Of a stretch of 18,334 bases of DNA, positions 1-17,690 are shown one piece after another; the first letter of the stretch is position 1, and the number at the start of each line of letters is the position of its first letter. Below the pieces are notes generated by a model that worked only from the letters and a program-made list of their open reading frames with translations, was not told where the DNA came from and made no database searches. The DNA is from a virus (lineage: Duplodnaviria > Heunggongvirae > Uroviricota > Caudoviricetes). Where the stretch lies: positions 1 through 18,334 of the IMG/VR virus record IMGVR_UViG_2651869725_000022; one strand, 5' to 3'. Both the position numbers and the translations under genes were made by a program.

Positions 1-183
1 GGCCCGTTCAGCCAGGTCCTTGTCGAAGCGGTAACGAAACGACTTACTTTTTTCCGCCATCAGGTCATCAAGATGGCGCTGGCAGGCCTGAATCACAAAC
101 TGGCAGGCCACAATCTTTCCGCGCACGACATCACGGGCATACTGATTGGCAGCATTTACGTTGGGGTAAGATTTCCGGCTCAT
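1..183 (-). CDS. Terminase large subunit, N-terminal fragment (gene continues beyond window start)
   Basis: Minus-strand frame open from 207 to the window edge; ATG at 181-183 overlaps the stop of the upstream small-subunit gene (ATGA coupling). Translation begins [49 protein letters not shown], which I recall as typical of HK97-family TerL N-termini. Position directly downstream of TerS supports the call. Confidence 0.55.
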
Positions 184-674
184 GATTCGATAATTTTCAG
201 AAACGGGTTAGTAGCTTTCTTCTGCCCCGCCAGGCCAATCAGACGCTGGCGGCTGCTGGGGTCGAGTCCGAGCATTGCCCCCGTGCTGCTCATCTCGGAC
301 TCCTGTTCTTTTTTGGCGGTCAGCTCCGGATTTTTGACCCTGCCGCCCATTGCACCGGTGATGGTGTTGCCCTGTATGGCAATATTTTTCACGGCACGTC
401 GCCAGAACTCATAGGCCACGCACCACCGCTCAAGCACTGCGAGGTCAGTCACGCACAGCAGGCCCTGACCGCAGAGTTCTTTGGTTGTCAGTTGCCACAT
501 GATCGTGGCGAGAGGGAGATCTTCTTCAGCGAACCACTCTGGTGGCTCAACACCTTTGATGGGCGTAAAAACAGGTTCATCTTTGTTCAGGGCTCGCTTG
601 CCGGGGTTTCCGGCCAGCGCCTTGCGCGCCGTTGGCTTGGGGCGACGCCCGGAACGCCCCGCCGTTCCAGCCAT
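180..674 (-). CDS. Terminase small subunit (P27-like family)
   Basis: ORF 180-683; the preferred start is the ATG at 674, which has an AGGAG about 8 nt upstream (the GTG at 683 is too close to the RBS). Basic, Gly-rich N-terminus and overall composition resemble P27-type TerS. Located between the HNH endonuclease and TerL as in HK97-like phages. Confidence 0.7.
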
Positions 675-799
675 ATGCGGCACTCCTGGTTAAATTTCAT
701 TTTTCGCGGGTATAAAAAAACGATGGGGCGGGCAGTCCGGAAGACGTCAGGCTGCAGGGATTTGACCCGCCCCTCCCCTCAGGCAGTTGAGAATTATTA

Positions 800-1150
800 T
801 CACTTTAACCGTTCACGGGCCGTCTTCGCCTTATGACACGGCCAGCACAGACTCTGCAGATTACTGTCAGCATCAGTGCCGCCATGCGCTTTAGGGATGA
901 TGTGGTCAACAGTTTTCGCCTCACGCACCACACCAGCACGCAGACATAACTGACACAGACCTTTGTCACGCTTCAGAACACGCGCGCGGATACTGTCCCA
1001 CTTCGAACCGTAGCCGCGCTGATGACGGGATTGTCCAGGTTTGTATTGCTTCCAGCCTTCGCTTTTGTGGCTTTCGCAGTAGCCTGAAGGGTCAGTAGTG
1101 GTATGGCGGCAGCCGCGAACACGGCAGGCTTTCGGGGTTCGTGGCGGCAT
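800..1150 (-). CDS. HNH endonuclease (packaging-associated)
   Basis: 116 aa with Cys-rich N-terminus (CRVRGCRH...CESH) and a C-terminal HNH motif (DHIIPKAHGGTDADSNLQSLCWPCHKAK). Sits immediately upstream of the terminase genes, the usual arrangement in cos phages. Confidence 0.8.
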   Translation of the reverse strand: MPPRTPKACRVRGCRHTTTDPSGYCESHKSEGWKQYKPGQSRHQRGYGSKWDSIRARVLKRDKGLCQLCLRAGVVREAKTVDHIIPKAHGGTDADSNLQSLCWPCHKAKTARERLK

Positions 1151-1199
1151 TAATGCTTCCCTTTAAGTTATTACGATGGAACAGACCATAGAAATGGCA

Positions 1200-1223
1200 A
1201 TAAAAAACCGCCCGGAGGCGGTT
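1200..1223 (-). terminator. Intrinsic terminator downstream of the 106-aa gene
   Basis: Plus-strand AAAAAACCGCC-cgga-GGCGGTT; on the minus strand this is a GC stem followed by a T-run (TTTTTTATT). Confidence 0.55.
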
Positions 1224-1242
1224 CAATTATCATCTCGATAAA

Positions 1243-1563
1243 CTAAATCAGATCACCAATGTATTTTGCACTAATTGAAATTTGCATCTGAGGCATTCCG
1301 ACCACAGATCCATTTAACAGGTAATCACGTCCTCGTTCCTGCAAAGAAAGACTCAATTCAAAGTTCTTTACCCCAGGGAAAACCGAGGTGGCATTTAAAT
1401 CATGCTGCGATACGCGCAGAATAAGTTGGCTACCGTCAACTTTTCCCTGATACGTAAAACCAAAATCTCCGCCGTTTACTGCATTGTTTTTGACAACTAC
1501 GGTACCATTACCAAAATCACGCTGATTGCTTCTGAAAACAACAAAATAGATACCATCTTTCAT
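1243..1563 (-). CDS. Hypothetical protein (106 aa) between spanins and HNH
   Basis: Intact ORF followed by a terminator; no family recognised by eye. Weak RBS. Confidence 0.4.
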   Translation of the reverse strand: MKDGIYFVVFRSNQRDFGNGTVVVKNNAVNGGDFGFTYQGKVDGSQLILRVSQHDLNATSVFPGVKNFELSLSLQERGRDYLLNGSVVGMPQMQISISAKYIGDLI

Positions 1564-1655
1564 GTGTAAAGCCCTTTAAAAGAGTCACCAAAATCAGGTG
1601 CTTTGTATCTATTGGGCCATCACATATCAAATCAAGGAACAAAACAAAGTTAACA

Positions 1656-1925
1656 TCATTTTTTTTGCATGATGTGACCACGCTCAACTTCAATCCTTCT
1701 GATGTCAGCTTTATCGGTATTACATTGCGCCAATGCAGACAACAAGGCGACATTCAGATCTAAGCTCGAGCCCCACGTAAAATGATTAGGTAAATCAGGC
1801 TGAGGGGTTTCAGCCGTCAGGCTGGCTGGTAACGGAACTACCGGAACCTGGACGTAAACTGTTCGCGTACTTCCGCAACCGGTCAGCAGCGGCAGCAGGC
1901 ACAGGACGTGAAGCACAATCATCAT
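1656..1925 (-). CDS. Outer-membrane spanin (Rz1-like lipoprotein), overlapping Rz in another frame
   Basis: Frame 1656-1991 overlaps the 3' part of the Rz-like gene. Contains a lipobox (LLPLLTGC) followed by a Pro-rich stretch (VPVVPLPASLTAETPQPDLP). Start placed at the internal Met-Met (1925); the exact start is uncertain. Confidence 0.55.
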   Translation of the reverse strand: MMIVLHVLCLLPLLTGCGSTRTVYVQVPVVPLPASLTAETPQPDLPNHFTWGSSLDLNVALLSALAQCNTDKADIRRIEVERGHIMQKK

Positions 1926-2202
1926 CCGCAACAGCCACTTTGATATCTTTCTGGGTTCTCTGTGACTCCAGTGCGATCTGCTGTTTTGCATGTTGATTCG
2001 CCTCCTGAATGATGTTCGTTATTGCCATAGTACGCAGAACATTCGCGGTGATAGCCTCAGTAGAATCAGCTCGCTGTTCCGCAGCATCAGCACGCTTCTG
2101 CTCCTCCAGAAACTTTCCATGATAGTGATTCGCTGACCAGACAAGACCACCAGCGACACAAGCAATAAACGTTAAAATGAGCGCCCAATAACTCATCTTC
2201 AT
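1810..2202 (-). CDS. Inner-membrane spanin (Rz-like)
   Basis: 130 aa with an N-terminal transmembrane helix (WALILTFIACVAGGLVW), then a charged, coiled-coil-like region. Immediately downstream of the endolysin, with the lipoprotein frame overlapping. Confidence 0.6.
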   Translation of the reverse strand: MKMSYWALILTFIACVAGGLVWSANHYHGKFLEEQKRADAAEQRADSTEAITANVLRTMAITNIIQEANQHAKQQIALESQRTQKDIKVAVADDDCASRPVPAAAADRLRKYANSLRPGSGSSVTSQPDG

Positions 2203-2813
2203 ACCAGCAGCGCCGCCCGCGCCTTGTTGTATCGGACCTTACGATCCTCAATACCGTTCAAACCGCCGTTAATGATGCGCGTAACACGGTTAATATCGGC
2301 ACCGTAGATCATGCAACCTTTAGAGGTGTAGAACCATGCAGCTGAGCGCGCAGCCTGTAGTTCCTGTTCCAGTTGTTCAGGTGAAGTCACCAGATCTAAC
2401 TTCAGCGCCGCGCCACAGATGCGATAATTATGGAGGCCAGTGATTTGAATTAATCCTCTACCGCGATATTTCCAGCCATCACCGGGTGCTTTGTTACCCA
2501 GCCGGTTGCTATACACCAGATTGGCAATAGCATCCTGGCGAGCTGCATGTCCGGATGTTCTGCCAAGGGCATCAGCCTGCTGCTGTGTGATCCTCTTTCC
2601 GAACGTCGCCACCAGCGCAGATGGCGTGTAGTTAAAATTTTCAACTACGGCGCTAAACCCCATCGACTCATGGCCTACCTGAGCGATAAACATTGCCTGA
2701 TCCGCTGGTGCTGTAATGCCGAATTCCTTCATCGCCGCATCAATGTGCGGAAACCAGCGCGCAGCCAGCCCGGCGCTAATACCAGCCGCCTTTTGAAATA
2801 ATTGTTGGTTCAT
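2199..2813 (-). CDS. Endolysin, glycoside hydrolase family 19 (chitinase-like lysozyme)
   Basis: 204 aa; motifs FIAQVGHES and YRGRGLIQITGLHNY are characteristic of GH19 phage endolysins. Flanked by holin-like and spanin genes; 4-bp overlap with the Rz-like start. Confidence 0.8.
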   Translation of the reverse strand: MNQQLFQKAAGISAGLAARWFPHIDAAMKEFGITAPADQAMFIAQVGHESMGFSAVVENFNYTPSALVATFGKRITQQQADALGRTSGHAARQDAIANLVYSNRLGNKAPGDGWKYRGRGLIQITGLHNYRICGAALKLDLVTSPEQLEQELQAARSAAWFYTSKGCMIYGADINRVTRIINGGLNGIEDRKVRYNKARAALLV

Positions 2814-3094
2814 TAGTGCCTCAGATGATCAACCAGACGTGCAACGTTGCCTCTGACAGCCACCAGCACGGAAAGAAAAATAGTGTTCGCCACGATAATG
2901 GGCCATGAGGAATGGGGATAAATCCCACAGAGATAGGCCAACGGAACAGCACTGTATGTAACAGTAATCAGCCAGGCTAAACGTGAAACCCAAGGACGAT
3001 GCCGCGAATCACCACGACGATAAAACATCAGAGTAATAACAACACAAGCACATAACAGCGCATTTATAGTTGCTGTCGGGTCATTTAGCTCCAC
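2813..3094 (-). CDS. Small membrane protein of the lysis cassette (holin/antiholin-like)
   Basis: 93 aa with at least two hydrophobic helices (INALLCACVVITLMF; IIVANTIFLSVLVAV). Lies between the putative holin and the endolysin, with start/stop overlaps on both sides. Confidence 0.45.
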   Translation of the reverse strand: MELNDPTATINALLCACVVITLMFYRRGDSRHRPWVSRLAWLITVTYSAVPLAYLCGIYPHSSWPIIVANTIFLSVLVAVRGNVARLVDHLRH

Positions 3095-3467
3095 CTGAAC
3101 CTCCCCGGCGCGTTATGAGCGCCACCAGCGAGCCGATATCCTGATTATTCAGGAACGTCAGGATTTTAACGGCTAAAGCAGAGACGATTACGGCACCAAT
3201 AGCATCCAGAGGTTTATCACTGTATCCGGTCAAGTTCGCCAGCTTGGAGCCAACCAACCCAGAGCAAAGAATCCCGGCAATATATGACACGATAAAATAT
3301 GCCAGTCGGCGCGATGCACTCAGATCTGCAGCTGTTGCTATGTAGAATACAGCCCCTGCAAATGCGCCAAATACAACGCCGTAATCAGTTCCGGTCAGCA
3401 GTCCATAAACACTGGCACCCGTCAGGGCACCACCAGCCAGCCCAGTACCGGAAATCGGATCGGACAT
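3081..3467 (-). CDS. Putative holin (Gly-rich multi-pass membrane protein)
   Basis: 128 aa, Gly/Ala-rich hydrophobic segments. First gene of the lysis cassette, with a GAGGGGG RBS 5 nt upstream of the ATG at 3467. Confidence 0.5.
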   Translation of the reverse strand: MSDPISGTGLAGGALTGASVYGLLTGTDYGVVFGAFAGAVFYIATAADLSASRRLAYFIVSYIAGILCSGLVGSKLANLTGYSDKPLDAIGAVIVSALAVKILTFLNNQDIGSLVALITRRGGSGGAK

Positions 3468-3510
3468 TTAGCCCCCTCTTAATTGCTGTTGGTCCTCTCA
3501 GAACGAGGGG

Positions 3511-3540
3511 AAACAAAAAAGGCCGCATTAAGGCGGCCTT
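3511..3540 (-). terminator. Intrinsic terminator downstream of the accessory gene 3558-4154
   Basis: 8-bp GC stem AAGGCCGC / GCGGCCTT (3519-3540) with a 6-nt loop; on the minus strand it is followed by TTTTTTGTTT. Confidence 0.65.
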
Positions 3541-3557
3541 GGTGAGGTATAGTTTTT

Positions 3558-4154
3558 TTAAGATAAACTTTGATTGATATACTCATGACACCCAAAAATA
3601 AAGGCGTTTTGTGCATCAATAAATGACTTTTTTTCTTCCGGAGTAAAATACCCTTTTGTAAAACATACTTTTAGCGCTTTTTGAAGATCTGCCGTCAGGG
3701 TTATCAACTTACAACCTTCCTCATCAGGCCTTATTAATAGAAGTAATTTATTTTTACTTATTTCAGCGGCCTTTATTGGAACTTGAATCTCCTCAGGGAA
3801 AACACCCTTAGCCAATATATCCATATTCTTATTTCCGACCAGATGCCATTGCTCAAATGTGCTGGCCAACATAATTACGTCTGTCACATGCTCAGCGCCA
3901 GCAAAACGTATTTGTTGCGCCAATTCTTTATTAGTATTCAAGTGAGCCTGTAATGTGGCTAAGGCAAAATTTTCTTTGATTGCCCTGTATGCAACCCAAC
4001 CAGTTATTCCTGCGGCAATAACGCCTGCAAGAGCAGTAATGAGTGTTTCAAAAGGAAAGGAAGAACTGATTTCAATTGGCGGTAATTTTTCTATTACCAA
4101 GGTCAACTCGCCAGTAGTTTTTTCGAAAGCGTACGGTACGTTTTGCCAAGTCAT
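3558..4154 (-). CDS. Hypothetical membrane-anchored protein (198 aa); accessory gene between Q and the lysis cassette
   Basis: Strong RBS (AGGAGG 4 nt before the ATG at 4154). One predicted transmembrane helix (LITALAGVIAAGITGWVAYRAI) near the N-terminus, then a soluble domain of about 140 aa. Visibly more AT-rich than its neighbours and flanked by intrinsic terminators. No family recognised. Confidence 0.6.
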   Translation of the reverse strand: MTWQNVPYAFEKTTGELTLVIEKLPPIEISSSFPFETLITALAGVIAAGITGWVAYRAIKENFALATLQAHLNTNKELAQQIRFAGAEHVTDVIMLASTFEQWHLVGNKNMDILAKGVFPEEIQVPIKAAEISKNKLLLLIRPDEEGCKLITLTADLQKALKVCFTKGYFTPEEKKSFIDAQNAFIFGCHEYINQSLS

Positions 4155-4182
4155 GAAGCCTCCTGAGTTTCAGAGGAATCAT

Positions 4183-4208
4183 AACAAAAAAACCCGCTCA
4201 ATGGCGGG
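4183..4208 (-). terminator. Intrinsic terminator just downstream of Q (tR'-like position)
   Basis: Plus strand AAAAAAA-CCCGC-tcaatg-GCGGG; on the minus strand the stem is followed by seven Ts. Lies between the Q stop (4261) and the next start (4154), as tR' does in lambda. Confidence 0.5.
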
Positions 4209-4260
4209 CTCTTAATGTTGTGTTGCTCAGTTCGCTTTAACGTCCCGAGCCTACCACAAT

Positions 4261-4839
4261 TTAAGCACTTTCTTGCTCACTCTGCAACTTAAATCTGTCG
4301 CTATTTGTGCCGAATGCGTCACAAACTGGAGCGTACAGGATCGATTCTGCAAGACTTAGCCAAGTGTCAATGCGTCGACGACAGGTGATCAGCGGCCAGT
4401 CAGGATGTTTAGCCTGCAGTTCATTGGCCATCTGCAACTTGCTCTTACGAAGACGATACCGGTCAACAATCACGCTATAGAGCGATCGGTAGTCATCATT
4501 CATCAGTACTGAAGCAATGACACCGTCCACTAACAACCCTTCTTCATCTGAACAGAACGCCAGGCCGCTTTTATTTTTGCTGTTGAGAATTTCACGCAGG
4601 TACGCTTCAAGTTCAGGCTTGGTGATACCCGCTATCTTCATCCGGCGTAGCGCTTCATTGATAGCTGTCTTGGTGATTTTCCCGGATGCCAGAAGCTGGT
4701 TAAACATGTTTCCACCACTACCACCGCCGATATAAGACCAGCGGCCCCACATGCGCAACTTGCCTTGTATCCAGATACTTTCCAGAGTACGAAGGCGAAC
4801 CATTTCACCTGATTTGCCAACTTCAGAAGGATTAATCAT
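4261..4839 (-). CDS. Late-gene antitermination protein Q-like
   Basis: 192 aa. Position (end of nin region, directly upstream of terminator and lysis genes) plus recalled resemblance to Q-family antiterminators (LRMWGRWSY...GGGSGG region, Cys/His pairs near the C-terminus). Family assignment is from memory. Confidence 0.55.
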   Translation of the reverse strand: MINPSEVGKSGEMVRLRTLESIWIQGKLRMWGRWSYIGGGSGGNMFNQLLASGKITKTAINEALRRMKIAGITKPELEAYLREILNSKNKSGLAFCSDEEGLLVDGVIASVLMNDDYRSLYSVIVDRYRLRKSKLQMANELQAKHPDWPLITCRRRIDTWLSLAESILYAPVCDAFGTNSDRFKLQSEQESA

Positions 4840-4853
4840 TTAGCATTCTCCAC

Positions 4854-5849
4854 TTACGCCAGTACGCCTATTGCCAGCGCACGATCGATAAAACGAAATA
4901 TCAGCTCCAGCTGGGAGCCATACTTCTCTTCAAATGCCACGGTATCCGCATGCAGCTCGTCGTGATGCTTTCTGCACAAAGGCAACACAAAGAGGTAATG
5001 CGCTTTTGTACCCATTCCACCCTGACCGTGACCTATCAGGTGGTGGGGATCATCAGCAGGCTTTCCACAACATGCACACGGCTGTGTCTTAACCCAGCGC
5101 GTGTACTTTTCATTAACCCAGCGGCGACGTTTTGGGCGTAACATAAAAGACTCCGGCGACTCCGGATCCACTTTCAGCGCCAGCACCTTTTTTGCCTTAT
5201 CCTGGATGATGCTGGTGGCAGGAACCGAAGGCACAAGGTCACTTTCCCGGGTGACAGACGGCACAACAGGCTTCGGTAATCTCAGTGCCTTACGGGCTGC
5301 ACTTTCCGGTAAGGCACCCGCCAGGTCATTACGAATCAGCCACCAGCACAGTTCCGGCATTGTCACAGCGTGACTATCATCAAAACCGAGATCCCGACGC
5401 ACAACAGACAACACCCAGCGGGCACAGTTATCCGTTGCCATTGATTCCAGCCGTTCCGTGAACTGATCGCGCAGCTGGTTATCGCAGTGCCAGCACAGAC
5501 GGATTGCACCCGGCGCGTGTCGCATTGTGGTCATGTTCTCGCTGTGCCAGTCGGAATGAGGCCACTGGCAGCCTTTTTCACGAAGTAACCAGCTTTCAAG
5601 ACATTCCACGCCACCAGCACGACGGATCACTGCCTCATTGCGGAACACGGCCCGAACGGCAGGATCATCCGCCAGCGGTTGTGATGCCGCCGGAACAGCA
5701 CCACTGGCGAAAGATGAATAACGTTCCGGCTCAGGCTCCAGCAGGACACGCCCCTGCATAAACAGGGGCATCAGCTCTGAACCTGGTCTGAACAATACGA
5801 TCCCCATACGCGGGGCAATTTCAGGGGTCAGTAGTGCTCTCACGGTCAC
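4854..5849 (-). CDS. DUF968-family (YdfU-like) protein with C-terminal HNH-like Cys/His motif
   Basis: 331 aa; C-terminal CACCGKPADDPHHLIGHGQGGMGTKAHYLFVLPLCRKHHDELH resembles a zinc-binding HNH-type nuclease motif. I recall this architecture from YdfU-like prophage proteins in the nin region. Confidence 0.55.
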   Translation of the reverse strand: MTVRALLTPEIAPRMGIVLFRPGSELMPLFMQGRVLLEPEPERYSSFASGAVPAASQPLADDPAVRAVFRNEAVIRRAGGVECLESWLLREKGCQWPHSDWHSENMTTMRHAPGAIRLCWHCDNQLRDQFTERLESMATDNCARWVLSVVRRDLGFDDSHAVTMPELCWWLIRNDLAGALPESAARKALRLPKPVVPSVTRESDLVPSVPATSIIQDKAKKVLALKVDPESPESFMLRPKRRRWVNEKYTRWVKTQPCACCGKPADDPHHLIGHGQGGMGTKAHYLFVLPLCRKHHDELHADTVAFEEKYGSQLELIFRFIDRALAIGVLA

Positions 5850-5850
5850 C

Positions 5851-6648
5851 TCAATGAACGATATCGAGCAGCTTTAACAGCTCAGGGAATCGGGATTCGA
5901 AGAAATGCGGCTGCGTCTCGCGCGGATTTGCGGGACTGGTGATGTTCTTGCCGAACATGCAGCCTTTCGCTGTCAGCGACCAGAATTTTTTGATGTTGTT
6001 AATCGCGGTACGGCTGTATCGTTCGCGCTGCTCGACGATCCCCAGCTTCACCATCTGGTGATATGCCTGATTAGCCGTCAGGCGTATACCATACTGTTTC
6101 AGCAGTGCACTCAGTGACAGTGTCGGGCGACTTGAGCCATCGTGTGCATCAGCAGGAGCATCAATGGCATAGCGCGGTGCCAGATTCGGTAAGCCAACAG
6201 CCTCCTGGAGTTTCTGACAGGCACCAAGCACTGAAGAGTTAGACAGGTTTAATTCCCGGCGCATAAAGTCCAGCAGAATCACACCAGCCTGCATCTTGTC
6301 AGCAGCCTGTCCGGATAATTTTTCCGGTGCGCTGGTTACCATATCGAAAGTACGGATCACCTTCAGATGGAATGACGGGCTGATCCACATTGCATAGGCA
6401 TACACCAGTTCTTTGCAGACATACGTCCCCTGGTTATTTCCGCCACGAATAACGTTAACTGGCTCTATATTGACCGAGTTGCAAATCTGCAACTCGCTTA
6501 TTAAACGTTCAGTTTGCTCATTGCGGAGCCAGAATGCAGGCTTATGCTTATCCAGAGAACCGGCAGCCCTGTGCAGATCGTTCAGGCTGTAACGCCCATA
6601 AGCATCACGACGAACTTCAATACCATCAATGACCATCAGATTATTCAT
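5851..6648 (-). CDS. KilA-N domain protein (antirepressor-like)
   Basis: Preferred start is the ATG at 6648 (GAGGAGA RBS 8 nt upstream); the longer ORF to 6750 is probably read-through. N-terminal MNNLMVIDGIEVRRDAYGRYSLNDLHRAAG...GTYVCKELVYAYAMWISPSFHLKV matches the KilA-N signature. Confidence 0.65.
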   Translation of the reverse strand: MNNLMVIDGIEVRRDAYGRYSLNDLHRAAGSLDKHKPAFWLRNEQTERLISELQICNSVNIEPVNVIRGGNNQGTYVCKELVYAYAMWISPSFHLKVIRTFDMVTSAPEKLSGQAADKMQAGVILLDFMRRELNLSNSSVLGACQKLQEAVGLPNLAPRYAIDAPADAHDGSSRPTLSLSALLKQYGIRLTANQAYHQMVKLGIVEQRERYSRTAINNIKKFWSLTAKGCMFGKNITSPANPRETQPHFFESRFPELLKLLDIVH

Positions 6649-6667
6649 ACTTCGTTTCTCCTCTTGA

Positions 6668-7057
6668 TCAGGCGGCTGCACCCGCCGTTTTCTCGTACTT
6701 ACTGATAGTGATCTCGATCTTCCCTCCCGGGATAACCGGTCCCCACTCAACCAGCATTCTTTTCACCTGACTGTCGTCTTCCCACACACCCGCGTGGGTC
6801 AGGGCGTCAAACAGCGCCTTGTTATAGTTGTCCAGATCGCGGATCCGGTTATCCGGAGGAAACAACACGATCTCCACTGAAGCAGGTGCCGACGTTGGTT
6901 TCGGCAGGCGACGTAACTGCTCAACTATTGCTGCGCACGCCGCGCTCTGGAATTTGCGCCCCGCTGCGCTTATCAGACTCTTACCAGCAAACGCCCCTTT
7001 GTTGGGGTGTCGCCAGTACGTGTTCACGCTGGGCGGGAAAGGCAAGATCAGCTTCAT
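6668..7057 (-). CDS. rusA: Holliday junction resolvase RusA
   Basis: 129 aa starting MKLILPFPPSVNTYWRH; conserved RusA N-terminal motif and acidic catalytic residues (DLDNY, DALT). 4-bp overlap with the upstream gene. Confidence 0.85.
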   Translation of the reverse strand: MKLILPFPPSVNTYWRHPNKGAFAGKSLISAAGRKFQSAACAAIVEQLRRLPKPTSAPASVEIVLFPPDNRIRDLDNYNKALFDALTHAGVWEDDSQVKRMLVEWGPVIPGGKIEITISKYEKTAGAAA

Positions 7058-7380
7058 ACTTTCAGGCCCCTCTCATGTAACCAGTGGGCTGCACGCAGCC
7101 TGCCGTTTTCCTCACCGGCAAGCAGTGCGCGGATAATCCCGACCGCCTCGCTGTCGTCGTCCTTCACCGCGGTATGAAGCGTTATCCCCCGGGCCACGCC
7201 ACGCTTTATCGTGATGACGCCTTTTTTCTCCAGTGCACGAAGATGCTCTACCGCTGCATTCACTGAACGGTATCCCAGCATGGTTGCCACCTCCTGATTG
7301 GTTGGCGGAAAGCCACGCTCTTTCTGATAAGAAATCAGCATATCCAGCACCTGCTGCTGGCATTGAGTTAACGTCGTCAT
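7054..7380 (-). CDS. LexA N-terminal DNA-binding domain homolog lacking the S24 peptidase domain
   Basis: 108 aa; residues about 3-70 align closely by eye with the E. coli LexA winged-helix domain (LTxxQQxVxDxI...GxPPTxxExAxxLGxRSxNAAxEHLxALxxKGVIxIxxGxxRGIxL). No Ala-Gly cleavage site or Ser/Lys dyad follows. ATGA overlap with the Dam gene stop. Confidence 0.6.
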   Translation of the reverse strand: MTTLTQCQQQVLDMLISYQKERGFPPTNQEVATMLGYRSVNAAVEHLRALEKKGVITIKRGVARGITLHTAVKDDDSEAVGIIRALLAGEENGRLRAAHWLHERGLKV

Positions 7381-8030
7381 GCCGCCATCTCCCTGACCAG
7401 TTTTTCCGCCTGCTGGCGAACCTGCGCCAGAAACGCCTCACCACATACCTCAAGTTCATCGCGCCCGATGTAGCTGATTGCCGGTCCCTTCCAGGTCTTA
7501 TCGAAAACAGCAATAGCACCAGCGAAGAAAGCGCCTGTCGGCACCTGCTTCTCATCCTTCGGGATAAACCAGGCAGGCAGTTCAAAACCAATACGCCCGC
7601 GAATAAAAGCAATATGGTCTGCATCTTCCGGCCACCACACTTCGCTGGTGGCAGCTTTGATCAGGAAAACATAGCGCCCACCCTTATCACGCATAGCACT
7701 GGCATGTTTCATGATGTAACGCATGCCGGTGATGTATTGCCCCTCATGCTGACTGGCGCGGCTGTATGGGGGATTACCAAAGGCAGCCCCTTTAAGCTCC
7801 GCAAGACGTTCTGACCAGTCATGCGCCAGCGCGTTGTCTTCCGCCGTGTAATACGCAGCACATTTGGCGTTATCACCGTCAGTGAACAGATCCAGAACAA
7901 ACGGGCCAAACAGGGTGTTAATTCCCCAGAAAATGTTGTCCGGCGTGCGCCACTGATCGCCCACTTCCTTCAGTTCATGGGCTGGTTTGTTCCGCAGCTC
8001 CACCAGCGCCCGGCAATATTTATTACTCAT
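7377..8030 (-). CDS. Phage DNA N6-adenine methyltransferase (Dam-like)
   Basis: Preferred start at 8030 (MSNKYC...), overlapping the upstream stop as TAATG. Contains the catalytic NPPY motif (FGNPPYSR) typical of N6-adenine/N4-cytosine methyltransferases. Confidence 0.7.
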   Translation of the reverse strand: MSNKYCRALVELRNKPAHELKEVGDQWRTPDNIFWGINTLFGPFVLDLFTDGDNAKCAAYYTAEDNALAHDWSERLAELKGAAFGNPPYSRASQHEGQYITGMRYIMKHASAMRDKGGRYVFLIKAATSEVWWPEDADHIAFIRGRIGFELPAWFIPKDEKQVPTGAFFAGAIAVFDKTWKGPAISYIGRDELEVCGEAFLAQVRQQAEKLVREMAA

Positions 8031-8524
8031 TAAGCCCCCACGTAATTCCCTGACAGATACCACTCTTCACCCGATGCAGCGCGCTTGCTGCTTTTCCGTA
8101 AGCACCGCTCACGATGCGCCAGAAAATTGTTTCGTTCTGGCTGGGAGTGGCTTTCACGGAATGCCGCCATCCACACGGTTGCAGCACGACGAAATAAGCC
8201 TCTTGACTCCAGTTCTTCAGCCTGGCGGGTCAGGCACAAAATCACCCGGGGATCGTTAGTGCCGACATAGAAATTGCGCACAGGTCTGGTTTCACGAACT
8301 GGTTGTGGTTCCGGCTCCCGCGCTCTCTCAGTCAGGCGCGGGAAATGTCTGCGTGTATCCCCTTCACAACGGTGAGCCACAGGCCCACTCTGACGTAACT
8401 TGCTTGCTGACTGCAGTACGCGCTGCCGTGAGTAACCTGCAAAAGCATCCGCAATGTCTCCGGAAGTACACCCCGGATGGGCTTCAATGAATTTCTGAAC
8501 GTCATTCAAAAGACTCATGATCAC
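8030..8524 (-). CDS. Putative transcriptional regulator (PerC-like C-terminal motif)
   Basis: 164 aa; the C-terminal LESRGLFRRAATVWMAAF resembles the PerC-family signature as I recall it. Translationally coupled to the O-like gene (4-bp overlap) and the Dam gene. Family call is tentative. Confidence 0.4.
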   Translation of the reverse strand: MIMSLLNDVQKFIEAHPGCTSGDIADAFAGYSRQRVLQSASKLRQSGPVAHRCEGDTRRHFPRLTERAREPEPQPVRETRPVRNFYVGTNDPRVILCLTRQAEELESRGLFRRAATVWMAAFRESHSQPERNNFLAHRERCLRKSSKRAASGEEWYLSGNYVGA

Positions 8525-9462
8525 CCCCTGAATCCTGCCGGGATCTGGCTGTAGTCCACGTTGTCGTAACTGGATTTGAAGTACGGGTCTTCGCGTTTTT
8601 CGGTGTACGTGCTGACGGACGGCGATAAGCGCAGGGAAAGCTCATCCCATTTTTCCCGCAGCTTCGACGGGCTGAGCACGTTACGGCACCAGAACGGATC
8701 GCGGCTGACGCGGCTGTACATCTCGCAGATTTGTTTGTGAGTACGACCATCCTGCACACACATCAGGCGAATTTCGTTTGCCCAGGCTGTCCAGTTCGGT
8801 TCTTTGGGACGAACCACCTCGCCGTCACATTCGGCAGCCTGCTCGTACAGGGCGATGATTTTTTTCCAGAGCCACTGTGCGCAGGTCAAATCATCCTGCG
8901 TCCCCCACTGGCGCTTTTTAGGGCTGAATACAACCGCATCAGGATGGCGAGTTAAAAAATCCTGTTCAGCCGTCTGCGTGTCCGGTTGCGAAGCGTCCGG
9001 ACGAGAAGGTTTTTTATCTGACGGATCATGTTTTGATTTTACTGACGGATCCCCGCCAGATTCTGACGGGTGAAAACCCGCTTTTTTGCCAGATTTCGAC
9101 GCATCAAATTTTGACGGGTCAGATTTTGATGCGTCAGATTTTGACGGGTCAGAATCTGACAGTTGAGAAAATGCCGCTGCCTGAAGCTTCGCAACGTTAA
9201 GCTGATAAACATTCGACGCATTGCGGTTACCCTGGCGACGCGCCTTACGCGTTAACCAGCCTTCTGCTTCCAGCCGTGCGATAGCCGTTCTGACGGTACT
9301 CATCCCCGCGCCAATCTGACGGGCAATGGTTTCAATTGATGGCCAGCACACACCTTCGTCATTACTGAAATCAGCCAGGCGGGCCATAATTGCCACGCTG
9401 GATAACTTCATGCCTGATGCAGCGCAACCATCCCATACATAGCCGGTTAATTTAGTGCTCAT
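8521..9462 (-). CDS. Replication initiator, lambda O-like (HTH N-terminal domain, iteron-encoded linker, O-type C-terminal domain)
   Basis: 313 aa. The C-terminal segment (WGTQDDLTCAQW...NWTAWANEIRLMCVQDGRTHKQICEMYSRVSRDPFWCRNVLSPSKLREKWDELS) closely parallels the lambda O C-terminal domain (WGTAEDLTAAEW...NFAGWANDIRLMRERDGRNHRDMCVLFRWACQDNFWSGNVLSPAKLRDKWTQLE) from memory. The central low-complexity SDSDPSKSDASKSDPSKFDASKSG is encoded by direct repeats. Confidence 0.8.
   Translation of the reverse strand: MSTKLTGYVWDGCAASGMKLSSVAIMARLADFSNDEGVCWPSIETIARQIGAGMSTVRTAIARLEAEGWLTRKARRQGNRNASNVYQLNVAKLQAAAFSQLSDSDPSKSDASKSDPSKFDASKSGKKAGFHPSESGGDPSVKSKHDPSDKKPSRPDASQPDTQTAEQDFLTRHPDAVVFSPKKRQWGTQDDLTCAQWLWKKIIALYEQAAECDGEVVRPKEPNWTAWANEIRLMCVQDGRTHKQICEMYSRVSRDPFWCRNVLSPSKLREKWDELSLRLSPSVSTYTEKREDPYFKSSYDNVDYSQIPAGFRG
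9016..9162. repeat. Iteron array (candidate replication origin) inside the O-like gene
   Basis: At least eight copies of a T(C/T)TGAC(G/A)G core; the last five are spaced at exactly 15 bp (cores at 9096, 9111, 9126, 9141, 9156; unit approx GTCAGATTTTGACGG), with further copies at 9018, 9042 and 9063. Moderately AT-rich stretch on the 3' side (8940-9015). Mirrors ori-lambda architecture within O. Confidence 0.6.
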
Positions 9463-9471
9463 GACCGACCT

Positions 9472-9810
9472 CTATTTCCCTGAATTTACGACGAAACTGT
9501 TCGAGCGGGCTGAAGCACTCATGCTCATAGCCTTCGCGGAGGTAGATAACTCGTTGTGTTTCCGGCTCCCAACGAATGACTCTGACGGGCACTCCGTAGT
9601 GATCTTTGAACCAGCGGTTAACTTGTCGCAAAGGACTGTCTCCTTCTGCCGGTTGAAATCACCCACAGCCCACTCAGCAAAGCTGTGGGTTACAATTTCC
9701 CTGTCACCTGGTACATTTACTGCATAGCAATACTCCACCTTCGCTTTTCCACCCGGTACAGGAAGCGCAATCAGTTGCGAGCGACGGTAGTGTGTTGTTA
9801 AACTGTTCAT
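9472..9810 (-). CDS. Hypothetical protein (112 aa), translationally coupled
   Basis: ATG at 9810 overlaps the upstream stop (ATGA) and has GGAG 9 nt upstream. No family recognised. An antisense ORF (9455-9727, plus strand) occupies the same DNA, so the coding strand is not fully certain. Confidence 0.35.
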
Positions 9811-10358
9811 GCGTTAGTTTCTCCACAGTCACGACACGCCACGGCGCCCGGAGCTGCACACTCGCGGGCGTCACTACTTTCTGAAACGCAAAAGATTTTG
9901 TAGACCAGTGCTGCATGCTCCTGCAGCTTCGAAATTGAGAGGTACAGCTCATCGTTAATTGCTGTCTTCTCATGCGGTTCCACTACACCGTCTTCAATTG
10001 CTGAACGAATCTGTTTTGAATAACTGCCGATCTGTTCAATGACTTCCAGCAGGCGTTGGTTGATATCGGCGTTGTCCACATCCTCGACGTCAGGAAGAGA
10101 CACAAAGACGCCATTTGCAGACTGCGCCACAGCATCAGCAATGAAGTGAGTGCCACCAGCACGCTGTAAAACCATTGCCCATCCCAGCGGGAAAATCTGA
10201 TCGCCATCTGCACGAAGGCGGTTGAATAAAGCGTTTTCTGTTACATCGAGCCAGTCAGCCGCTTCAGCGTAACCACCCGGCAACGCCGCGATAGTTTTTC
10301 TGACAGCTTTCACATACCACTTAGGCTGTTTTTCTACTTTCCAGTGATGCTTACCCAC
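9807..10358 (-). CDS. CII-like regulatory protein with extended C-terminal domain
   Basis: Preferred start is the GTG at 10358 (AAGGAG 6 nt upstream); the longer ORF to 10463 would overlap cro. The segment [39 protein letters not shown] parallels the lambda CII HTH region (TEKTAEAVGVDKSQISRWKRDWIPKFSMLLAVLE) from memory. Sits between cro and O as cII does. Confidence 0.45.
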
Positions 10359-10380
10359 GGCTATCTCCTTAAAACTGTGG

Positions 10381-10629
10381 TTACTTTTCATCTGATGAAT
10401 CTTTAATCTTTTGAAAAATATCTGGACGTAATTTTTCTTTTGATATGCCAGTGGTCTTTTCAATGAATATCGAGAGCTTTGCAGGGGGACGCTTTTCTCT
10501 GTTCAACCAGTTCCAGACATGTTGTTGCTTTACTAAATGACCGCTGCTGGCTGTGAGCTTCCGAGCCAATTCTGATTGACCACCAGCCAGAGCGATTGCC
10601 TCCGATAAGGCTAATTGCTCAGGTGTCAT
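10381..10629 (-). CDS. Cro-like repressor (YdaS/Cro-type HTH)
   Basis: 82 aa, divergent from the cI-like gene across a 135-bp operator region; AAGGAG RBS 6 nt upstream of the ATG. HTH-like segment LSEAIALAGGQSELARKLTASSGHLVKQ. Confidence 0.6.
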   Translation of the reverse strand: MTPEQLALSEAIALAGGQSELARKLTASSGHLVKQQHVWNWLNREKRPPAKLSIFIEKTTGISKEKLRPDIFQKIKDSSDEK

Positions 10630-10764
10630 AGCTTTCTCCTTTTTAGGTAGTTAAGTTGTTACGAGTTGCAAGAATACAACATTAACAACTTTTATCACAA
10701 CTTTTAGGTGTTGGAAAGCTAAAACATAAAGTTGTAACCTCACCAAAAAAGAGAGGGATATGTT
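10630..10764. promoter_or_regulatory. Divergent operator/promoter region (OR analogue; pR towards cro, pRM towards cI)
   Basis: Intergenic region between divergent cro-like and cI-like genes. It carries at least five copies of the half-site AAGTTGT / ACAACTT (for example TTAAGTTGTTAC, TTAACAACTTTT, ATCACAACTTTT, AAAGTTGTAACC); the same motif recurs at the pL candidate. Confidence 0.55.
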
Positions 10765-11451
10765 GTGAAAACACTGGCAGAACGATTAAAGATAGGTAGA
10801 GAGAAAGCTGGCATGAGCCAAGCTCAACTAGCTGAAAAAATTGGACTTTCACAACAATCTGTAGCCAAAATAGAGAATGGCGAAACTCTACAACCGCGCA
10901 AAATTAAAGAAATTGCAAAAGTTTTAGGTGTATCACAAAAGTGGTTACAACTTGGTATTGAAGACAACGCATCCATACCTGATCTTGTTGTAAAAGAAGC
11001 AGAAAGCACCGCATTAGACCCCGATATTTTCGTAAACATCCCTGTTTTAGATGTCGAGTTATCGGCAGGTAATGGATGTCTGGCTGAAATAGTTGAATCA
11101 GCTATTGACTGGTTTCCGTTAAGAAGAGCAGATTTGAGAAAATCTGGCGTATGTGCATCTAATGCCAAGATCGTAAAAATATGGGGGAACAGTTTATTAC
11201 CGGTTCTCAATAATGGAGATCTTGTTGCCGTTGATATTTCTCAAACCGTTCCTATTCGTGATGGCGATCTTTATGCCATACGAGATGGTGTATTGCTAAG
11301 GGTTAAAATACTTATCAACTTACCTGACGGTGGCTTGATTCTTAGAAGCTTCAACAAAGATGAGTACCCAGATGAAATACTCACCTTTGAAGATAGACGA
11401 GCCAGAATTCATGTTATAGGTAGGGTATTCTGGTCATCGCGAACTTGGTAA
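10765..11451 (+). CDS. cI-type prophage repressor (HTH-XRE N-terminal domain plus S24 LexA-like autopeptidase domain)
   Basis: 228 aa starting at GTG 10765 (purine-rich RBS upstream). N-terminal HTH (MSQAQLAEKIGLSQQSVAKIENGE), candidate Ala-Gly cleavage site (LSAGNG), catalytic Ser (GNSL) and Lys (LRVK) in S24 arrangement. Confidence 0.85.
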   Translation: MKTLAERLKIGREKAGMSQAQLAEKIGLSQQSVAKIENGETLQPRKIKEIAKVLGVSQKWLQLGIEDNASIPDLVVKEAESTALDPDIFVNIPVLDVELSAGNGCLAEIVESAIDWFPLRRADLRKSGVCASNAKIVKIWGNSLLPVLNNGDLVAVDISQTVPIRDGDLYAIRDGVLLRVKILINLPDGGLILRSFNKDEYPDEILTFEDRRARIHVIGRVFWSSRTW

Positions 11452-12324
11452 TGCATCGAAAAGCATTTCTTCAGAAATAATTTTAAGTTTTGCACCATTA
11501 TCATCCCTATAAGATATAGCTTTTTCGATCTTCCTTCCGTGACTTGAGAATTTCCAATCACGGGAGGAAAGCGTCCCAATTACTAAAAAATCCAACTTTT
11601 GAGTAATTCCACTACTGATGTTCCCACCAGCATTTTTAATCAAATTTTCAACTACGGCTCTCTTTCCTGCAACAAAAGTGCCTGTAAGACAATAGGTTTT
11701 ACCCTCTAACTCTATCGAAGCCCCTACATCAATAGGCAGCCTGGTCGCCAAACCATCCACCACCCCACTTTCCAAGTCACATCCTGTGAAGTCTACTAAT
11801 GCCTTATGTAGAGTTAAACTCTCATCTTCAGTAATAACACCATCTTTAAGAATTTCCTTTACAAGTGCATAAAGTTTTTTTCCTGGGTAGTTGTTCTTCA
11901 AAGCTCCATTTTGCTCAAGCCACCAATTAAGATATCTTATTTCTTCTTGAGTTAAGTTCCGATCAGCAATTAATCCTTTACATAGTCCATTAAGTAAATG
12001 GACATCTACATCCTTGGAGTAAAAATCAATTTCAGGGATATCAAGAATTTCCCTCTGTATTTGGAGAAGGCTATTTTTAAGGTCATCACGTTCTTCTGAT
12101 GTGATTATTCCATCCGCAAGAATATCCGACACCCGTGCTGATAGACTTTTTATAACTCCATTATTGATAATCTGCTTTGCTTCAAGTAACCATGTATCTA
12201 AGTAAAGAACCTCCTCTTCACGGACAACTCCATCTGCAATGATTCCATCAATGATGCTAATCAAGTTAGCAAATAACTTGTCCCGGTTCTGTGTGTAATT
12301 AAAAGCGTAAAGCGCGTCTTCCAT
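11434..12324 (-). CDS. Accessory protein: four TerB-like helical repeats followed by a C-terminal BRCT domain
   Basis: 296 aa; GGAGG RBS 4 nt upstream of the ATG at 12324. Four repeats built on an acidic core (IADGVVREEEVLYL; LADGIITSEERDDL; IADRNLTQEEIRYL; LKDGVITEDESLTL). The C-terminal GKTYCLTGTF...GGNISSGITQKLDFLVIG...ISEEMLFDAL matches the BRCT pattern as seen in NAD-dependent ligase C-termini. AT-rich, convergent with cI and overlapping its 3' end by 18 bp. Confidence 0.65.
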   Translation of the reverse strand: MEDALYAFNYTQNRDKLFANLISIIDGIIADGVVREEEVLYLDTWLLEAKQIINNGVIKSLSARVSDILADGIITSEERDDLKNSLLQIQREILDIPEIDFYSKDVDVHLLNGLCKGLIADRNLTQEEIRYLNWWLEQNGALKNNYPGKKLYALVKEILKDGVITEDESLTLHKALVDFTGCDLESGVVDGLATRLPIDVGASIELEGKTYCLTGTFVAGKRAVVENLIKNAGGNISSGITQKLDFLVIGTLSSRDWKFSSHGRKIEKAISYRDDNGAKLKIISEEMLFDALPSSR

Positions 12325-12380
12325 ACAACCTCCTTTTTTGATAATCCTTGCACTCCTTGGCTACTCGTTCAAACCACATA

Positions 12381-12430
12381 AAGTTGTTGACAACATTCAA
12401 AACCACAATTAAATTACAACTTAAAGGTGT
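12381..12430 (+). promoter_or_regulatory. pL-like early-left promoter with operator half-sites (OL analogue)
   Basis: TTGACA at 12387-12392, 17-bp spacer, TAAATT at 12410-12415. It overlaps the imperfect palindrome AAAGTTGTTGACAACATT and a further ACAACTT copy, the same half-site as in the OR region. Confidence 0.45.
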
Positions 12431-12525
12431 TAAAACGACGAACAGGCAGGACGCCCACGAAGTAGCCGCCGGTGGCGTATGAATGACCGGATGATTCGTT
12501 AAATACTATGTGTAAGAGAGCGCAA

Positions 12526-12729
12526 ATGAACCGTTATTTCACATGCTCGTTTTGTGGCGCAAACGAGCTGCAGGCAAAAAAAATCATCGCCAAAGGCGGA
12601 AAAGATGAAGTTGCTATCTGCTCTGAGTGCGTAGTCTTGTGTGTCGGGGCATTAATCAATATCAGCACAACTATTCAGTTCACACCAAATGAGAATGCGC
12701 CTTTAGATGCGCGGAAATCTGGAGGTTAA
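12526..12729 (+). CDS. Small protein with ClpX-type C4 zinc-finger (ClpX N-domain-like)
   Basis: Preferred start is the ATG at 12526 (MNRYFTCSFCG...). CSFCGANELQAKKIIAKGGKDEVAICSECVVLC parallels the ClpX zinc-binding domain ([30 protein letters not shown]) from memory. First gene downstream of the pL candidate. Confidence 0.55.
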   Translation: MNRYFTCSFCGANELQAKKIIAKGGKDEVAICSECVVLCVGALINISTTIQFTPNENAPLDARKSGG

Positions 12730-12737
12730 AGAACAAA

Positions 12738-13013
12738 ATGAAAGTCCAGATTTTAAACAATAGTGGTGAAGTCGTTTGGTCATACGACATAGCCGCTCCT
12801 GTAGATCAGAGCGGCGATAGCTGGACCAATGGGAAACATCAGATTATGGCTGGAGTTGTATTCTCTTTACGCCGTGCTTTGGAACAGGCTGAAGTATTTC
12901 CATCAGACCCTGAATGGAAATGGCCTTTTTCTATTTGTCCAAATTCGGAGAGTACATTTCAGAAAATTGGTCAGAAAGTCGCACTCGAAGAGCATCAGCC
13001 AACTGTTTCCTGA
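12738..13013 (+). CDS. Hypothetical protein (91 aa)
   Basis: GGAGG RBS 9 nt upstream of the ATG. No family recognised. Its 3' end overlaps the convergent minus-strand ORF by about 83 bp. Confidence 0.4.
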   Translation: MKVQILNNSGEVVWSYDIAAPVDQSGDSWTNGKHQIMAGVVFSLRRALEQAEVFPSDPEWKWPFSICPNSESTFQKIGQKVALEEHQPTVS

Positions 13014-13176
13014 TTTTTTCAGGTAGCTCGTCGGCATCGCAGAAACAACAACGCTCGATCATGTTGAAAGCCGATTCGTAGAACTGTTTCTGCTGAGTGT
13101 CGCTGAGACAGGAAAAGAGCGACGTTACGATGATTTTATTAATTGCATTATCAAGTTCTTTTTCATCAAAAGTCAT
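12931..13176 (-). CDS. Hypothetical protein (81 aa), antisense-oriented within the early-left operon
   Basis: AGGA RBS about 7 nt upstream of the ATG at 13176. Helical-looking sequence with a CCFC motif. Convergent with and overlapping the 91-aa ORF. Confidence 0.4.
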   Translation of the reverse strand: MTFDEKELDNAINKIIVTSLFSCLSDTQQKQFYESAFNMIERCCFCDADELPEKIRKQLADALRVRLSDQFSEMYSPNLDK

Positions 13177-13430
13177 TTGATTTTCCTTTTATGTATACGG
13201 ACTTAAAAGGATACCACCGAGCCTGAAGTGGTGAAAAGACAGGCACATAACAGCTAAGTATTTTCAACCAGAGAGAATCCTTAGCGTTGTGGTGAATGCG
13301 GCTCAGCGCACGCGGGTTAAGGTTGAGGCTGACAGTCGACCTTCTGTGGATACCCACCCGCCAGGTGTGCAACCTTCGCCAGGCACCGGGAGGCACCCGG
13401 CACCACAACTTTATGCTGTGTGTAGTCTTG

Positions 13431-13478
13431 GCGGTACCAGCTTGTACCCTTGCTTCCGGCTGGTACCGCTCTTTTTAC
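13431..13478 (+). terminator. Candidate intrinsic terminator inside the early-left operon (tL-like)
   Basis: Perfect 11-bp stem GCGGTACCAGC (13431-13441) / GCTGGTACCGC (13459-13469) with a 17-nt loop, followed by CTCTTTTTAC. The loop is large for a canonical terminator, hence moderate confidence. Confidence 0.45.
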
Positions 13479-13613
13479 AAAACAGAGAAGAGCATCACCG
13501 GACGACGGGCTCATAACCCAATCCACCCGGGCGGCTGCCACCGCAGGTGTTCTTCTCTGTTTTGTGGAGAAACCAACCGACCTTGCAGGGTCGATATGAT
13601 TAGGAGCAGCAAA

Positions 13614-14048
13614 ATGGCTAGCGAACGCAGTACTGATGTGCAGGCATTTATCGGGGAGCTGGACGGCGGCGTATTTGAAACCAAAATCGGCGCAGTTCTC
13701 AGTGAAGTCGCTTCCGGTGTGATGAACACGAAAACCAAAGGTAAGGTCTCACTCAACCTGGAAATCGAACCGTTTGATGAGAACCGTGTGAAAATCAAAC
13801 ACAAACTCTCATATGTTCGCCCGACTAACCGCGGGAAAATTTCCGAAGAAGACACCACCGAAACGCCGATGTATGTCAATCGCGGTGGTCGCCCGACTAA
13901 CCGCGGGAAAATTTCCGAAGAAGACACCACCGAAACGCCGATGTATGTCAATCGCGGTGGTCGCCTGACTATTCTGCAGGAAGACCAGGGACAATTACTG
14001 ACTCTTGCCGGTGAACCTGACGGAAAACTCCGCGCAGCAGGTCATTAA
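13614..14048 (+). CDS. Hypothetical protein (144 aa) containing a duplicated 24-aa segment
   Basis: Preferred start is the ATG at 13614 with AGGAG 7 nt upstream; the upstream part of the long ORF 13296-14048 is GC-rich and lacks an RBS. Contains the tandem repeat PTNRGKISEEDTTETPMYVNRGGR twice. Confidence 0.55.
   Translation: MASERSTDVQAFIGELDGGVFETKIGAVLSEVASGVMNTKTKGKVSLNLEIEPFDENRVKIKHKLSYVRPTNRGKISEEDTTETPMYVNRGGRPTNRGKISEEDTTETPMYVNRGGRLTILQEDQGQLLTLAGEPDGKLRAAGH
13821..13964. repeat. Perfect 72-bp tandem duplication (2 copies) inside the coding sequence
   Basis: Copy 1 at 13821-13892 and copy 2 at 13893-13964 are identical base for base. A degenerate partial third start (GCCTGACTATTC) follows. 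Confidence 0.9.
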
Positions 14049-14113
14049 TATCGTTCTTAATTAACTGATTATTTATCTCATCACTGAATATCTTTATATA
14101 GTGAGGACTTATT

Positions 14114-14938: not shown

Positions 14939-15065
14939 TTTCATTACTGCAAATGCCCCTGCGGGGGCATTTATGGAAACGTAATTTACTCAATAATCGC
15001 CGGATGGTGATGGATTCTTTTTACCAGAATTCAGCGCGGTGCAGCGCATATACGTGGAGAACAAA

Positions 15066-17336: not shown

Positions 17337-17372
17337 TTTTCCCGGGTGCAGCCGGTTTTGATGGAGAAAATT

Positions 17373-17654: not shown

Positions 17655-17660
17655 ATAAAA

Positions 17661-17690
17661 AACCCGCCTAAAGGCGGGTTTTCAAAAAGC
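17661..17690. terminator. Bidirectional intrinsic terminator between convergent genes
   Basis: AACCCGCC-taaa-GGCGGGTT hairpin, flanked by an A-run upstream and TTTCAAAAA downstream, so it can serve both strands. Confidence 0.6.

Follow-up and report, generated by a model that had tools for sequence, protein, structure and literature searches.

Among the genes of an 18,334-nucleotide stretch of viral DNA assigned to the Caudoviricetes (IMG/VR record IMGVR_UViG_2651869725_000022, positions 1 to 18,334; referred to here as the window) is an open reading frame (ORF) at 7054..7380 on the minus strand that is LexA-N-terminal-domain-like and belongs to PHROG 362. The ORF is complete, begins with ATG and encodes 108 residues, the length given in an initial annotation of the window, and the product is here given the working name LexN. 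Compared with Escherichia coli LexA, LexN is without the S24 catalytic and dimerisation domain, carries a different, two-helix tail and is phage-encoded. The reading preferred, albeit tentatively and with somewhat less than even confidence, is that LexN is a RecA-insensitive, tail-dimerised LexA-type binder made during induction, which would occupy CTGT-type operators as a stand-in for LexA.

The identity of the first part of the protein was addressed at the levels of sequence and predicted structure. In Pfam, LexN residues 1-65 matched the LexA_DNA_bind profile (PF01726) over all of its positions (1-65/65; E 2.9e-19; 69 bits, with a cutoff of 23.7), and a sequence search of solved structures returned E. 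coli LexA chains as the best matches, with the isolated N-terminal domain (1lea) ranking first (E 6.8e-16). Foldseek placed residues 1-67 of the AlphaFold2 model onto DNA-bound LexA (3jso_B) with a root-mean-square deviation (rmsd) of 1.0 A over 67 columns and with 51% identity. A second AlphaFold2 model, based on a more diverse alignment, had a mean pLDDT (the predicted local distance difference test score) of 85.6. As such, the first 68 or so residues of LexN are, to judge from these matches and models, a full-length LexA winged-helix domain, with the winged helix-turn-helix spanning residues 1-68 (7177..7380, minus strand) and comprising helices at 6-22, 28-35 and 40-52 and strands at 56-58 and 66-68. 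The initial annotation had recognized this domain by its motifs, had called for a profile alignment to confirm it and had named a different predicted fold as grounds for abandoning it; the domain assignment was borne out by the Pfam score and the identity to E. coli LexA, the profile alignment proved to be full-length and the predicted structure kept the LexA fold.

The remainder of LexN departs from LexA. No match to Peptidase_S24 (PF00717) was found in LexN in the Pfam scan, and the lexA equivalog model TIGR00498 gave 70.1 bits (cutoff 110.95) for an alignment covering profile positions 1-91 of 203. Of what characterizes LexA proper according to TIGR00498, LexN thus presents the winged helix, and presents neither the S24 domain, the curated score nor a conserved Ala-Gly loop. 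Because no S24 match was obtained and the TIGR00498 alignment is so limited, the Ser/Lys dyad (Ser119/Lys156 of LexA) is absent, in agreement with what had been noted at the outset for this protein, which ends at residue 108. Likewise, since the catalytic domain is absent, RecA-stimulated self-cleavage is unavailable to LexN, supporting the earlier suggestion that such cleavage could not remove the protein. The accompanying statement that LexN lacks the Ala-Gly site was incorrect, although the conclusion of non-cleavability is unaffected. The HMMER alignment runs to LexN residue 90 and places L-L-A88-G89-E on V-A-A84-G85-E of LexA, such that Ala88-Gly89 (7114..7119, minus strand) aligns with the LexA cleavage site, Ala84-Gly85. 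This pair is replaced in relatives, with ANEE or VGEE appearing already at ~86% identity and ERES, TRKE, SGGD or DDQP at 39-50% identity, and in both AlphaFold2 models it lies in a predicted turn between two helices. As a candidate functional cleavage or pseudo-substrate site, Ala88-Gly89 was accordingly rejected, given its variability and its position between helices, and is treated, on the basis of alignment and models, as a vestige rather than a site.

The segment that takes the place of the protease domain had been overlooked, meaning that LexN is more than a bare LexA N-terminal domain. Residues 69-73 (7162..7176, minus strand) begin a linker near the only segment of low model confidence, where pLDDT values fall below 50 (residues 71-76 of the first model, 71-75 of the second). 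Then follows a predicted amphipathic helix-turn-helix tail at residues 74-103 (7072..7161, minus strand), delineated from the AlphaFold2 models and family columns, with helices at 74-88 and 91-103 and block pLDDT values of about 87-89 in the second model; the C-terminus, ...ERGLKV, comes after this structured region. Family columns 79, 80, 82, 83, 86, 87, 97, 98, 100 and 101 are mostly hydrophobic, creating on each tail helix an apolar stripe two residues wide. Because such stripes exceed the needs of a monomeric hairpin, we infer from the models that the tail would form a four-helix-bundle dimerisation module replacing the LexA C-terminal dimer, and that LexN is probably stable and dimeric. 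The architecture is shared across the family. LexN residues 1-108 aligned with positions 1-106/106 of the PHROG 362 profile ("transcriptional repressor", 106 positions; E 1.1e-58), and, in a search of 1.84 billion representative proteins, the matches of short relatives at 39-50% identity reached profile positions 99-104 of 106. All relatives checked, including the distant members P0132, P0124 and P0150, were near end-to-end matches to PHROG 362.

Attention was also given to the residues that would contact DNA. LexN and LexA numbering coincide up to about position 68, and the recognition helix, SVNAAVEHLRALEK, corresponds to residues 39-52 (7225..7266, minus strand). In LexA, helix III contacts DNA through Ser39, Asn41, Ala42, Glu44 and Glu45 (PMC3091678), with Asn41 and Glu45 making the base contacts and Arg28 a backbone contact (bioRxiv 10.1101/2020.07.14.201889). 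Alignment to E. coli LexA revealed that LexN keeps Ser39, Asn41, Ala42, Glu45, His46, Leu47 and Arg64, along with the recognition-helix pattern typical of gamma-proteobacteria, S-x-N-A-A-x-E-H-L, and has Asn in place of Arg28 and Val in place of Glu44. Surface conservation in LexN maps to the winged helix and the recognition helix within it.

The timing of LexN synthesis was considered in light of the gene's setting. At 7377..7380, an ATGA sequence joins the stop codon of a gene encoding a phage Dam-type N6-adenine methyltransferase (7377..8063, minus strand; Pfam PF05869, E 2e-45, with an annotated close relative) to the start of the LexN ORF, and at 7054..7057 a second ATGA joins the LexN stop codon to the start of a gene encoding a RusA Holliday-junction resolvase (6668..7057, minus strand; Pfam PF05866, E 8.3e-15). 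Both 4-nt overlaps were read directly from the sequence, as was a Shine-Dalgarno-like GGGAG 8 nt 5' of the LexN ATG, and they uphold the translational coupling within an overlapping Dam-to-RusA run that had been proposed for this gene. RefSeq relatives of the window Dam begin at the position equivalent to 8030. Upstream of dam, the overlapping run takes in a gene of the PerC family and the replication gene (HTH_36), and 3' of rusA are found a KilA-N gene, a DUF968/HNH-like gene and then a Q-type antiterminator gene. On the plus strand, at 10765..11451, a gene encoding a prophage CI-type repressor with HTH_3 and Peptidase_S24 domains faces a Cro-like gene and a CII-like gene. From its sequence, the locus belongs to a lambdoid prophage and represents its early-right, nin-like region, in line with the nin-region placement originally assigned; within the rightward early operon, LexN is translationally coupled, with an orphan DNA methyltransferase on one side and RusA on the other. 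Over the 3 kb surrounding the gene, identity to many E. coli chromosomes is 98%.

A consensus scan of the minus strand between 4000 and 11000 found no promoter-like sites, and the dam promoter annotated in phage SfV is weak, with a -35 hexamer that differs in the window. An internal promoter driving LexN expression in the lysogen was, as such, rejected. The rightward operon containing LexN is presumably gated by the S24-type, RecA-cleavable CI repressor, and since, in phages of the window's type, no promoter-like site serves this gene specifically, LexN would there be made solely after CI cleavage.

In related phages, LexN-type genes of PHROG 362 are found behind SOS boxes. In Klebsiella-type viral contigs (L017-L043, L050), near-consensus SOS boxes, such as TACTGTTTATTTATACAGTA and ACCTGTACATTCATACAGTG, precede gene runs that end in a LexN-type gene; examples lie at 4387-4406 in L025, 4559-4578 in L017 and 3536-3572 in L042. 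These boxes directly follow a terminator-like hairpin and come shortly before the first downstream ORF. The distance from the box to the LexN-type gene is ~440-690 bp in most of these contigs and about 1.4-1.9 kb when a recA-sized ORF lies between. Three arrangements were seen. In the first, the box is followed by a small ORF of PHROG 1813 and then the LexN-type gene (L017-L021, L027, L028, L031). In the second, found in most other contigs of the clade, a gene for a DinI homologue (Pfam E 1.7e-21), annotated as DinI in a Klebsiella phage record, stands between the box and the small PHROG 1813 ORF. In the third (L041, L042), two boxes precede a gene for a RecA homologue (E 2.6e-130), the small PHROG 1813 ORF and the LexN-type gene. 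In sequence, these runs look like phage-borne, LexA-controlled mini-SOS regulons. In the P0132-type clade, which stands directly behind a box, the N-terminal domain is 63% identical to that of LexA and the recognition helix, SPNAAAEHLKAL, is one residue away from its LexA counterpart, SPNAAEEHLKAL. As an observation in its own right, the RecA homologue of L042 (3598-4683) is full-length and lies in a phage nin-like region, 3' of two tandem SOS boxes.

In the proposed mechanism, the tail would pair two winged-helix domains in place of the LexA C-terminal dimer, and the dimer would bind inverted CTGT-type half-sites, namely, SOS-box-like operators. In the window's phage type, the gene would be transcribed solely after CI cleavage; in the Klebsiella-type relatives, additional transcription would come from the promoter carrying the SOS box. 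LexN would thereby appear exactly as host LexA is destroyed and would re-impose repression on some or all SOS-box promoters, with possible targets including host SOS genes, SOS-controlled accessory genes of the phage itself and SOS-controlled rival elements. The retention of Ser39, Asn41, Ala42 and Glu45, together with the placement of Klebsiella-type relatives behind near-consensus SOS boxes, is suggestive support. The idea of an uncleavable SOS repressor, as first put forward, is thus plausible but unproven, with SOS-box binding inferred from sequence.

Known systems provide partial precedents. LexN has in common with the E. coli LexA N-terminal domain (1lea; 3jso) the winged-helix fold at the identity and rmsd given above; unlike E. 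coli LexA, LexN is not autoregulated by an SOS box in the window. The LexA(1-84) autocleavage fragment is, like LexN, a LexA DNA-binding domain detached from its protease. The exact ClpX degron of this fragment is reportedly that described by Neher and colleagues in 2003. Because the LexA N-terminal fragment retains some SOS-box binding and repression, ClpXP must clear it (PMC10584840); LexA(1-84) ends in a tail recognized by ClpX and is rapidly degraded (PMC10584840), whereas LexN ends in a structured helical tail. The S119A (Ind-) form of LexA, which is non-cleavable and SOS-deficient (bioRxiv 10.1101/2020.07.14.201889), resembles LexN in being a repressor of LexA type that is proof against inactivation by RecA filaments, although such mutants are dimers of full-length LexA whose operator specificity is that of the wild type, whereas LexN is natural, truncated and phage-borne. 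Finally, gp7 of GIL01, a tectivirus of Bacillus thuringiensis, maintains repression of promoters under LexA control when DNA has been damaged and so suppresses a co-resident prophage (PMC9700832). This offers a functional analogy for the proposed role of LexN and a precedent for phage manipulation of LexA control, even though gp7 is a small co-repressor that binds LexA and is not, as LexN is, a LexA homologue of the DNA-binding kind.

A number of points weigh against a LexA stand-in, and several of them favor the possibility that LexN is a phage-specific transcription factor with a diverged operator of its own. In this explanation, considered a serious contender although judged to fall short of an even chance, LexN would act, as activator or repressor, on a phage promoter, such as one of a late or accessory gene, in place of host SOS boxes, and SOS-box control of its gene, where present, would merely time its synthesis. 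The pertinent example is GIL01 gp6, like LexN a temperate-phage protein that is essentially a LexA DNA-binding domain without S24. Made once LexA repression is lifted (PMC6182141), gp6 binds GaCACA-n-TGTGaC, a non-LexA palindrome, and switches on P3, a late promoter located downstream of the LexA-repressed early promoters; it depends on Lys38 (PMC6182141). As the sole characterised phage truncated LexA homologue, gp6 has a different site and is an activator, and by this example a LexA-domain protein of a phage can acquire a new target site and take on an activating role (PMC6182141). The comparison, made by description, has its limits, since gp6 comes from a different host and phage type and no conserved helical tail has been described for it; residue 38 of LexN is Arg.

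The contact residues also speak for divergence. Arg28 is present in 21 of 24 full-length LexA homologues and Glu44 in 20 of 24, and neither is found in any of the aligned members of the short family. Position 28 in this family is Asn in LexN and Gln, Tyr, Met or Thr elsewhere, and position 44 is Val in LexN and Ala, Phe, Thr or Leu elsewhere. Recognition-helix positions 44-46 differ between short-family clades, and in the largest, Klebsiella-type clade, where the helix is SPNAVALHLRAL, Leu replaces Glu45. Moreover, the tail is unlike the LexA dimer module, so that the spacing or orientation of half-sites may differ, permitting another half-site geometry. The SOS boxes of the relatives may serve the small ORF and the accessory genes dinI or recA instead of LexN, and a second SOS box is found in several Klebsiella-type nin regions. 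Lastly, no experiment on DNA binding by LexN was found in the searchable literature.

Searches for operators in the window likewise gave no support to SOS-box binding. A scan of the prophage for SOS boxes, called for at the outset, found no site above chance across the 18 kb: CTGT-N8-ACAG with at most one mismatch occurred 8 times, as compared to 6.0 expected, and the best score from a 20-bp weight matrix was 9.9 bits, within the range of shuffled sequence, for which the maximum averaged 10.6 bits; real boxes score 12.7 bits or more. This matrix drew on 20 E. coli boxes, with the consensus itself being confirmed in the literature. The absence of an SOS box from the window would fit a diverged operator, yet no candidate for such an operator was found either, as CTGT/ACAG pairs in both orientations and at spacings of 0-24 showed nothing notable in the window, and the surroundings of the LexN gene are nearly all coding. 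Furthermore, the recognition helix is much nearer to that of enterobacterial LexA than a new specificity would predict. The only item to come from the spacing scan, a 15-bp palindrome, ACTGTATGTAACAGT (CTGT-N5-ACAG), at 2953-2967 in the lysis-gene region, is probably due to chance.

Three further explanations fare worse. LexN could be tied to the orphan methyltransferase encoded upstream, either controlling or buffering its expression or else dampening SOS induction provoked by methylation; foreign methylation can reportedly provoke the SOS response via methylation-dependent restriction, as Heitman and Model are said to have described in 1987. The gene directly 5' is indeed a methyltransferase of apparently different families across clades, often with overlapping start and stop codons. 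Still, no methyltransferase directly adjoins LexN in the clade where DinI or RecA is encoded upstream, mosaic lambdoid phages commonly conserve gene order while one slot is swapped, LexN lies 3' of the methyltransferase, unlike the controller proteins of restriction-modification systems, and no operator was identified, making such a tie quite improbable. It is slightly less probable again that LexN works by some means other than sequence-specific DNA binding, serving as a protein-binding decoy or pseudo-substrate for the active sites of LexA, CI or UmuD or for RecA filaments, or that it is cleaved in trans. The LexA-like L-A-G-E motif aligned to the cleavage site would invite this idea; the variation of Ala-Gly even among relatives at about 86% identity, its location within a confidently predicted helix-turn-helix and the coincidence of the conserved surface with the winged helix and recognition helix argue against it. 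That LexN is a decaying, functionless remnant of a captured lexA gene can hardly be credited, since, despite some database entries being frameshifted or truncated, several phage clades keep the full-length architecture even at identities as low as 39%, the tail has a clear conservation pattern and, of 5426 complete E. coli genomes, 2233 hold copies with 95-99% nucleotide identity.

With respect to prevalence, these 2233 genomes amount to about 41% of those considered, with up to 4 copies per genome. Copies at 95-98% protein identity are carried by phages SfV (orf42), SfII, SfIV, cdtI and mEp460 and by Stx2a and Stx2c phages, and the identical protein is found on 738 public contigs under the name "LexA family transcriptional regulator". 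BFVD contains many other small viral proteins made solely of a LexA DNA-binding domain, and an entry in a survey of Stx phages (pham 237, pfam01726) offers annotation only. No functional study of the LexN family was found in the searchable literature, where mentions are at the level of annotation. The sequence feature is therefore already catalogued and the architecture is of a known kind, that of phage truncated LexA homologues; the useful new leads are the conserved helical tail and the operons, fronted by SOS boxes, in which lexN accompanies dinI or recA. With PADLOC, nothing beyond a weak match to a CARF3 model (E 3.7e-4) came up, and membership in a defence system was rejected on account of this weakness.

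The LexN gene itself is ordinary and of moderate interest as a candidate SOS modulator, with its importance turning on what is bound. If LexN binds SOS boxes, then many lysogens of E. coli, Shigella and Klebsiella would hold a RecA-proof LexA surrogate active during DNA damage. This would affect the duration and strength of the SOS response, including mutagenesis, filamentation and persistence after quinolones, as well as which co-resident prophage, Stx2 phages included, wins induction. The boldest version of the preferred reading, namely, that LexN provides phages widely with an SOS off-switch, in the form of a tail-dimerised LexA surrogate that resists cleavage and re-represses SOS-box promoters during prophage induction, is considered unlikely, with perhaps some chance of being correct. 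Were it true, host SOS functions would be curbed, rivals under SOS control, among them colicin operons and prophages whose antirepressors answer to LexA, would be blocked, and the Klebsiella-type mini-regulon of dinI or recA with lexN would close as a negative feedback. As the gene is so common in complete E. coli genomes and is carried by Stx2 phages, such a switch could shape SOS-dependent mutagenesis, prophage hierarchy and the induction of toxin phages. If LexN instead has its own operator, it would be an unrecognised nin-region regulator in a very common group of lambdoid phages.

Several observations were made in passing in phages carrying LexN-type genes. The methyltransferase encoded directly 5' of the LexN-type gene, with stop and start codons often overlapping, appears by eye to be a classical Dam-like adenine methylase in L003 (4119-4991) and L044 (4159-5052), cytosine-C5-like in L047 (3124-5010) and L008 (2833-5022) and a DPPW-motif enzyme in L048 (4429-4998). 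This variety reflects a functional link or else the exchange of genes at one fixed position. In several of these phages, a strong SOS box overlies the first codons of another methyltransferase gene, located 3' of the gene for antiterminator Q, as in SfV (L052, 34170-34189), mEp460 (L053, 41021-41040), L001 (7454-7473) and L042 (7943-7962); the window has neither this post-Q methyltransferase nor its SOS box. In addition, a near-consensus SOS box lies within the coding sequence of the CI-type repressor in mEp460 (L053, 31970-31989) and in L048 (1531-1550).

Elsewhere in the window, ORFs at 3558-4154 (minus strand; 198 residues), between Q and holin, and at 13296-14048 (plus strand; 250 residues) had no match in Pfam or PADLOC. 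Beside cI, an ORF of 296 residues at 11434-12324 on the minus strand contains a BRCT domain (E 1.3e-6) and weakly matches the candidate defence family PDC-S48 (E 2.4e-7), and on the strength of these matches may have an accessory or defence role, being located at the immunity region. Within the HTH_36 replication gene, at 9090-9153, the 15-bp unit CAGATTTTGACGGGT is repeated 4.3 times, encoding SDxSKxD peptide repeats; as judged from their sequence, the 15-bp units are probably origin iterons.

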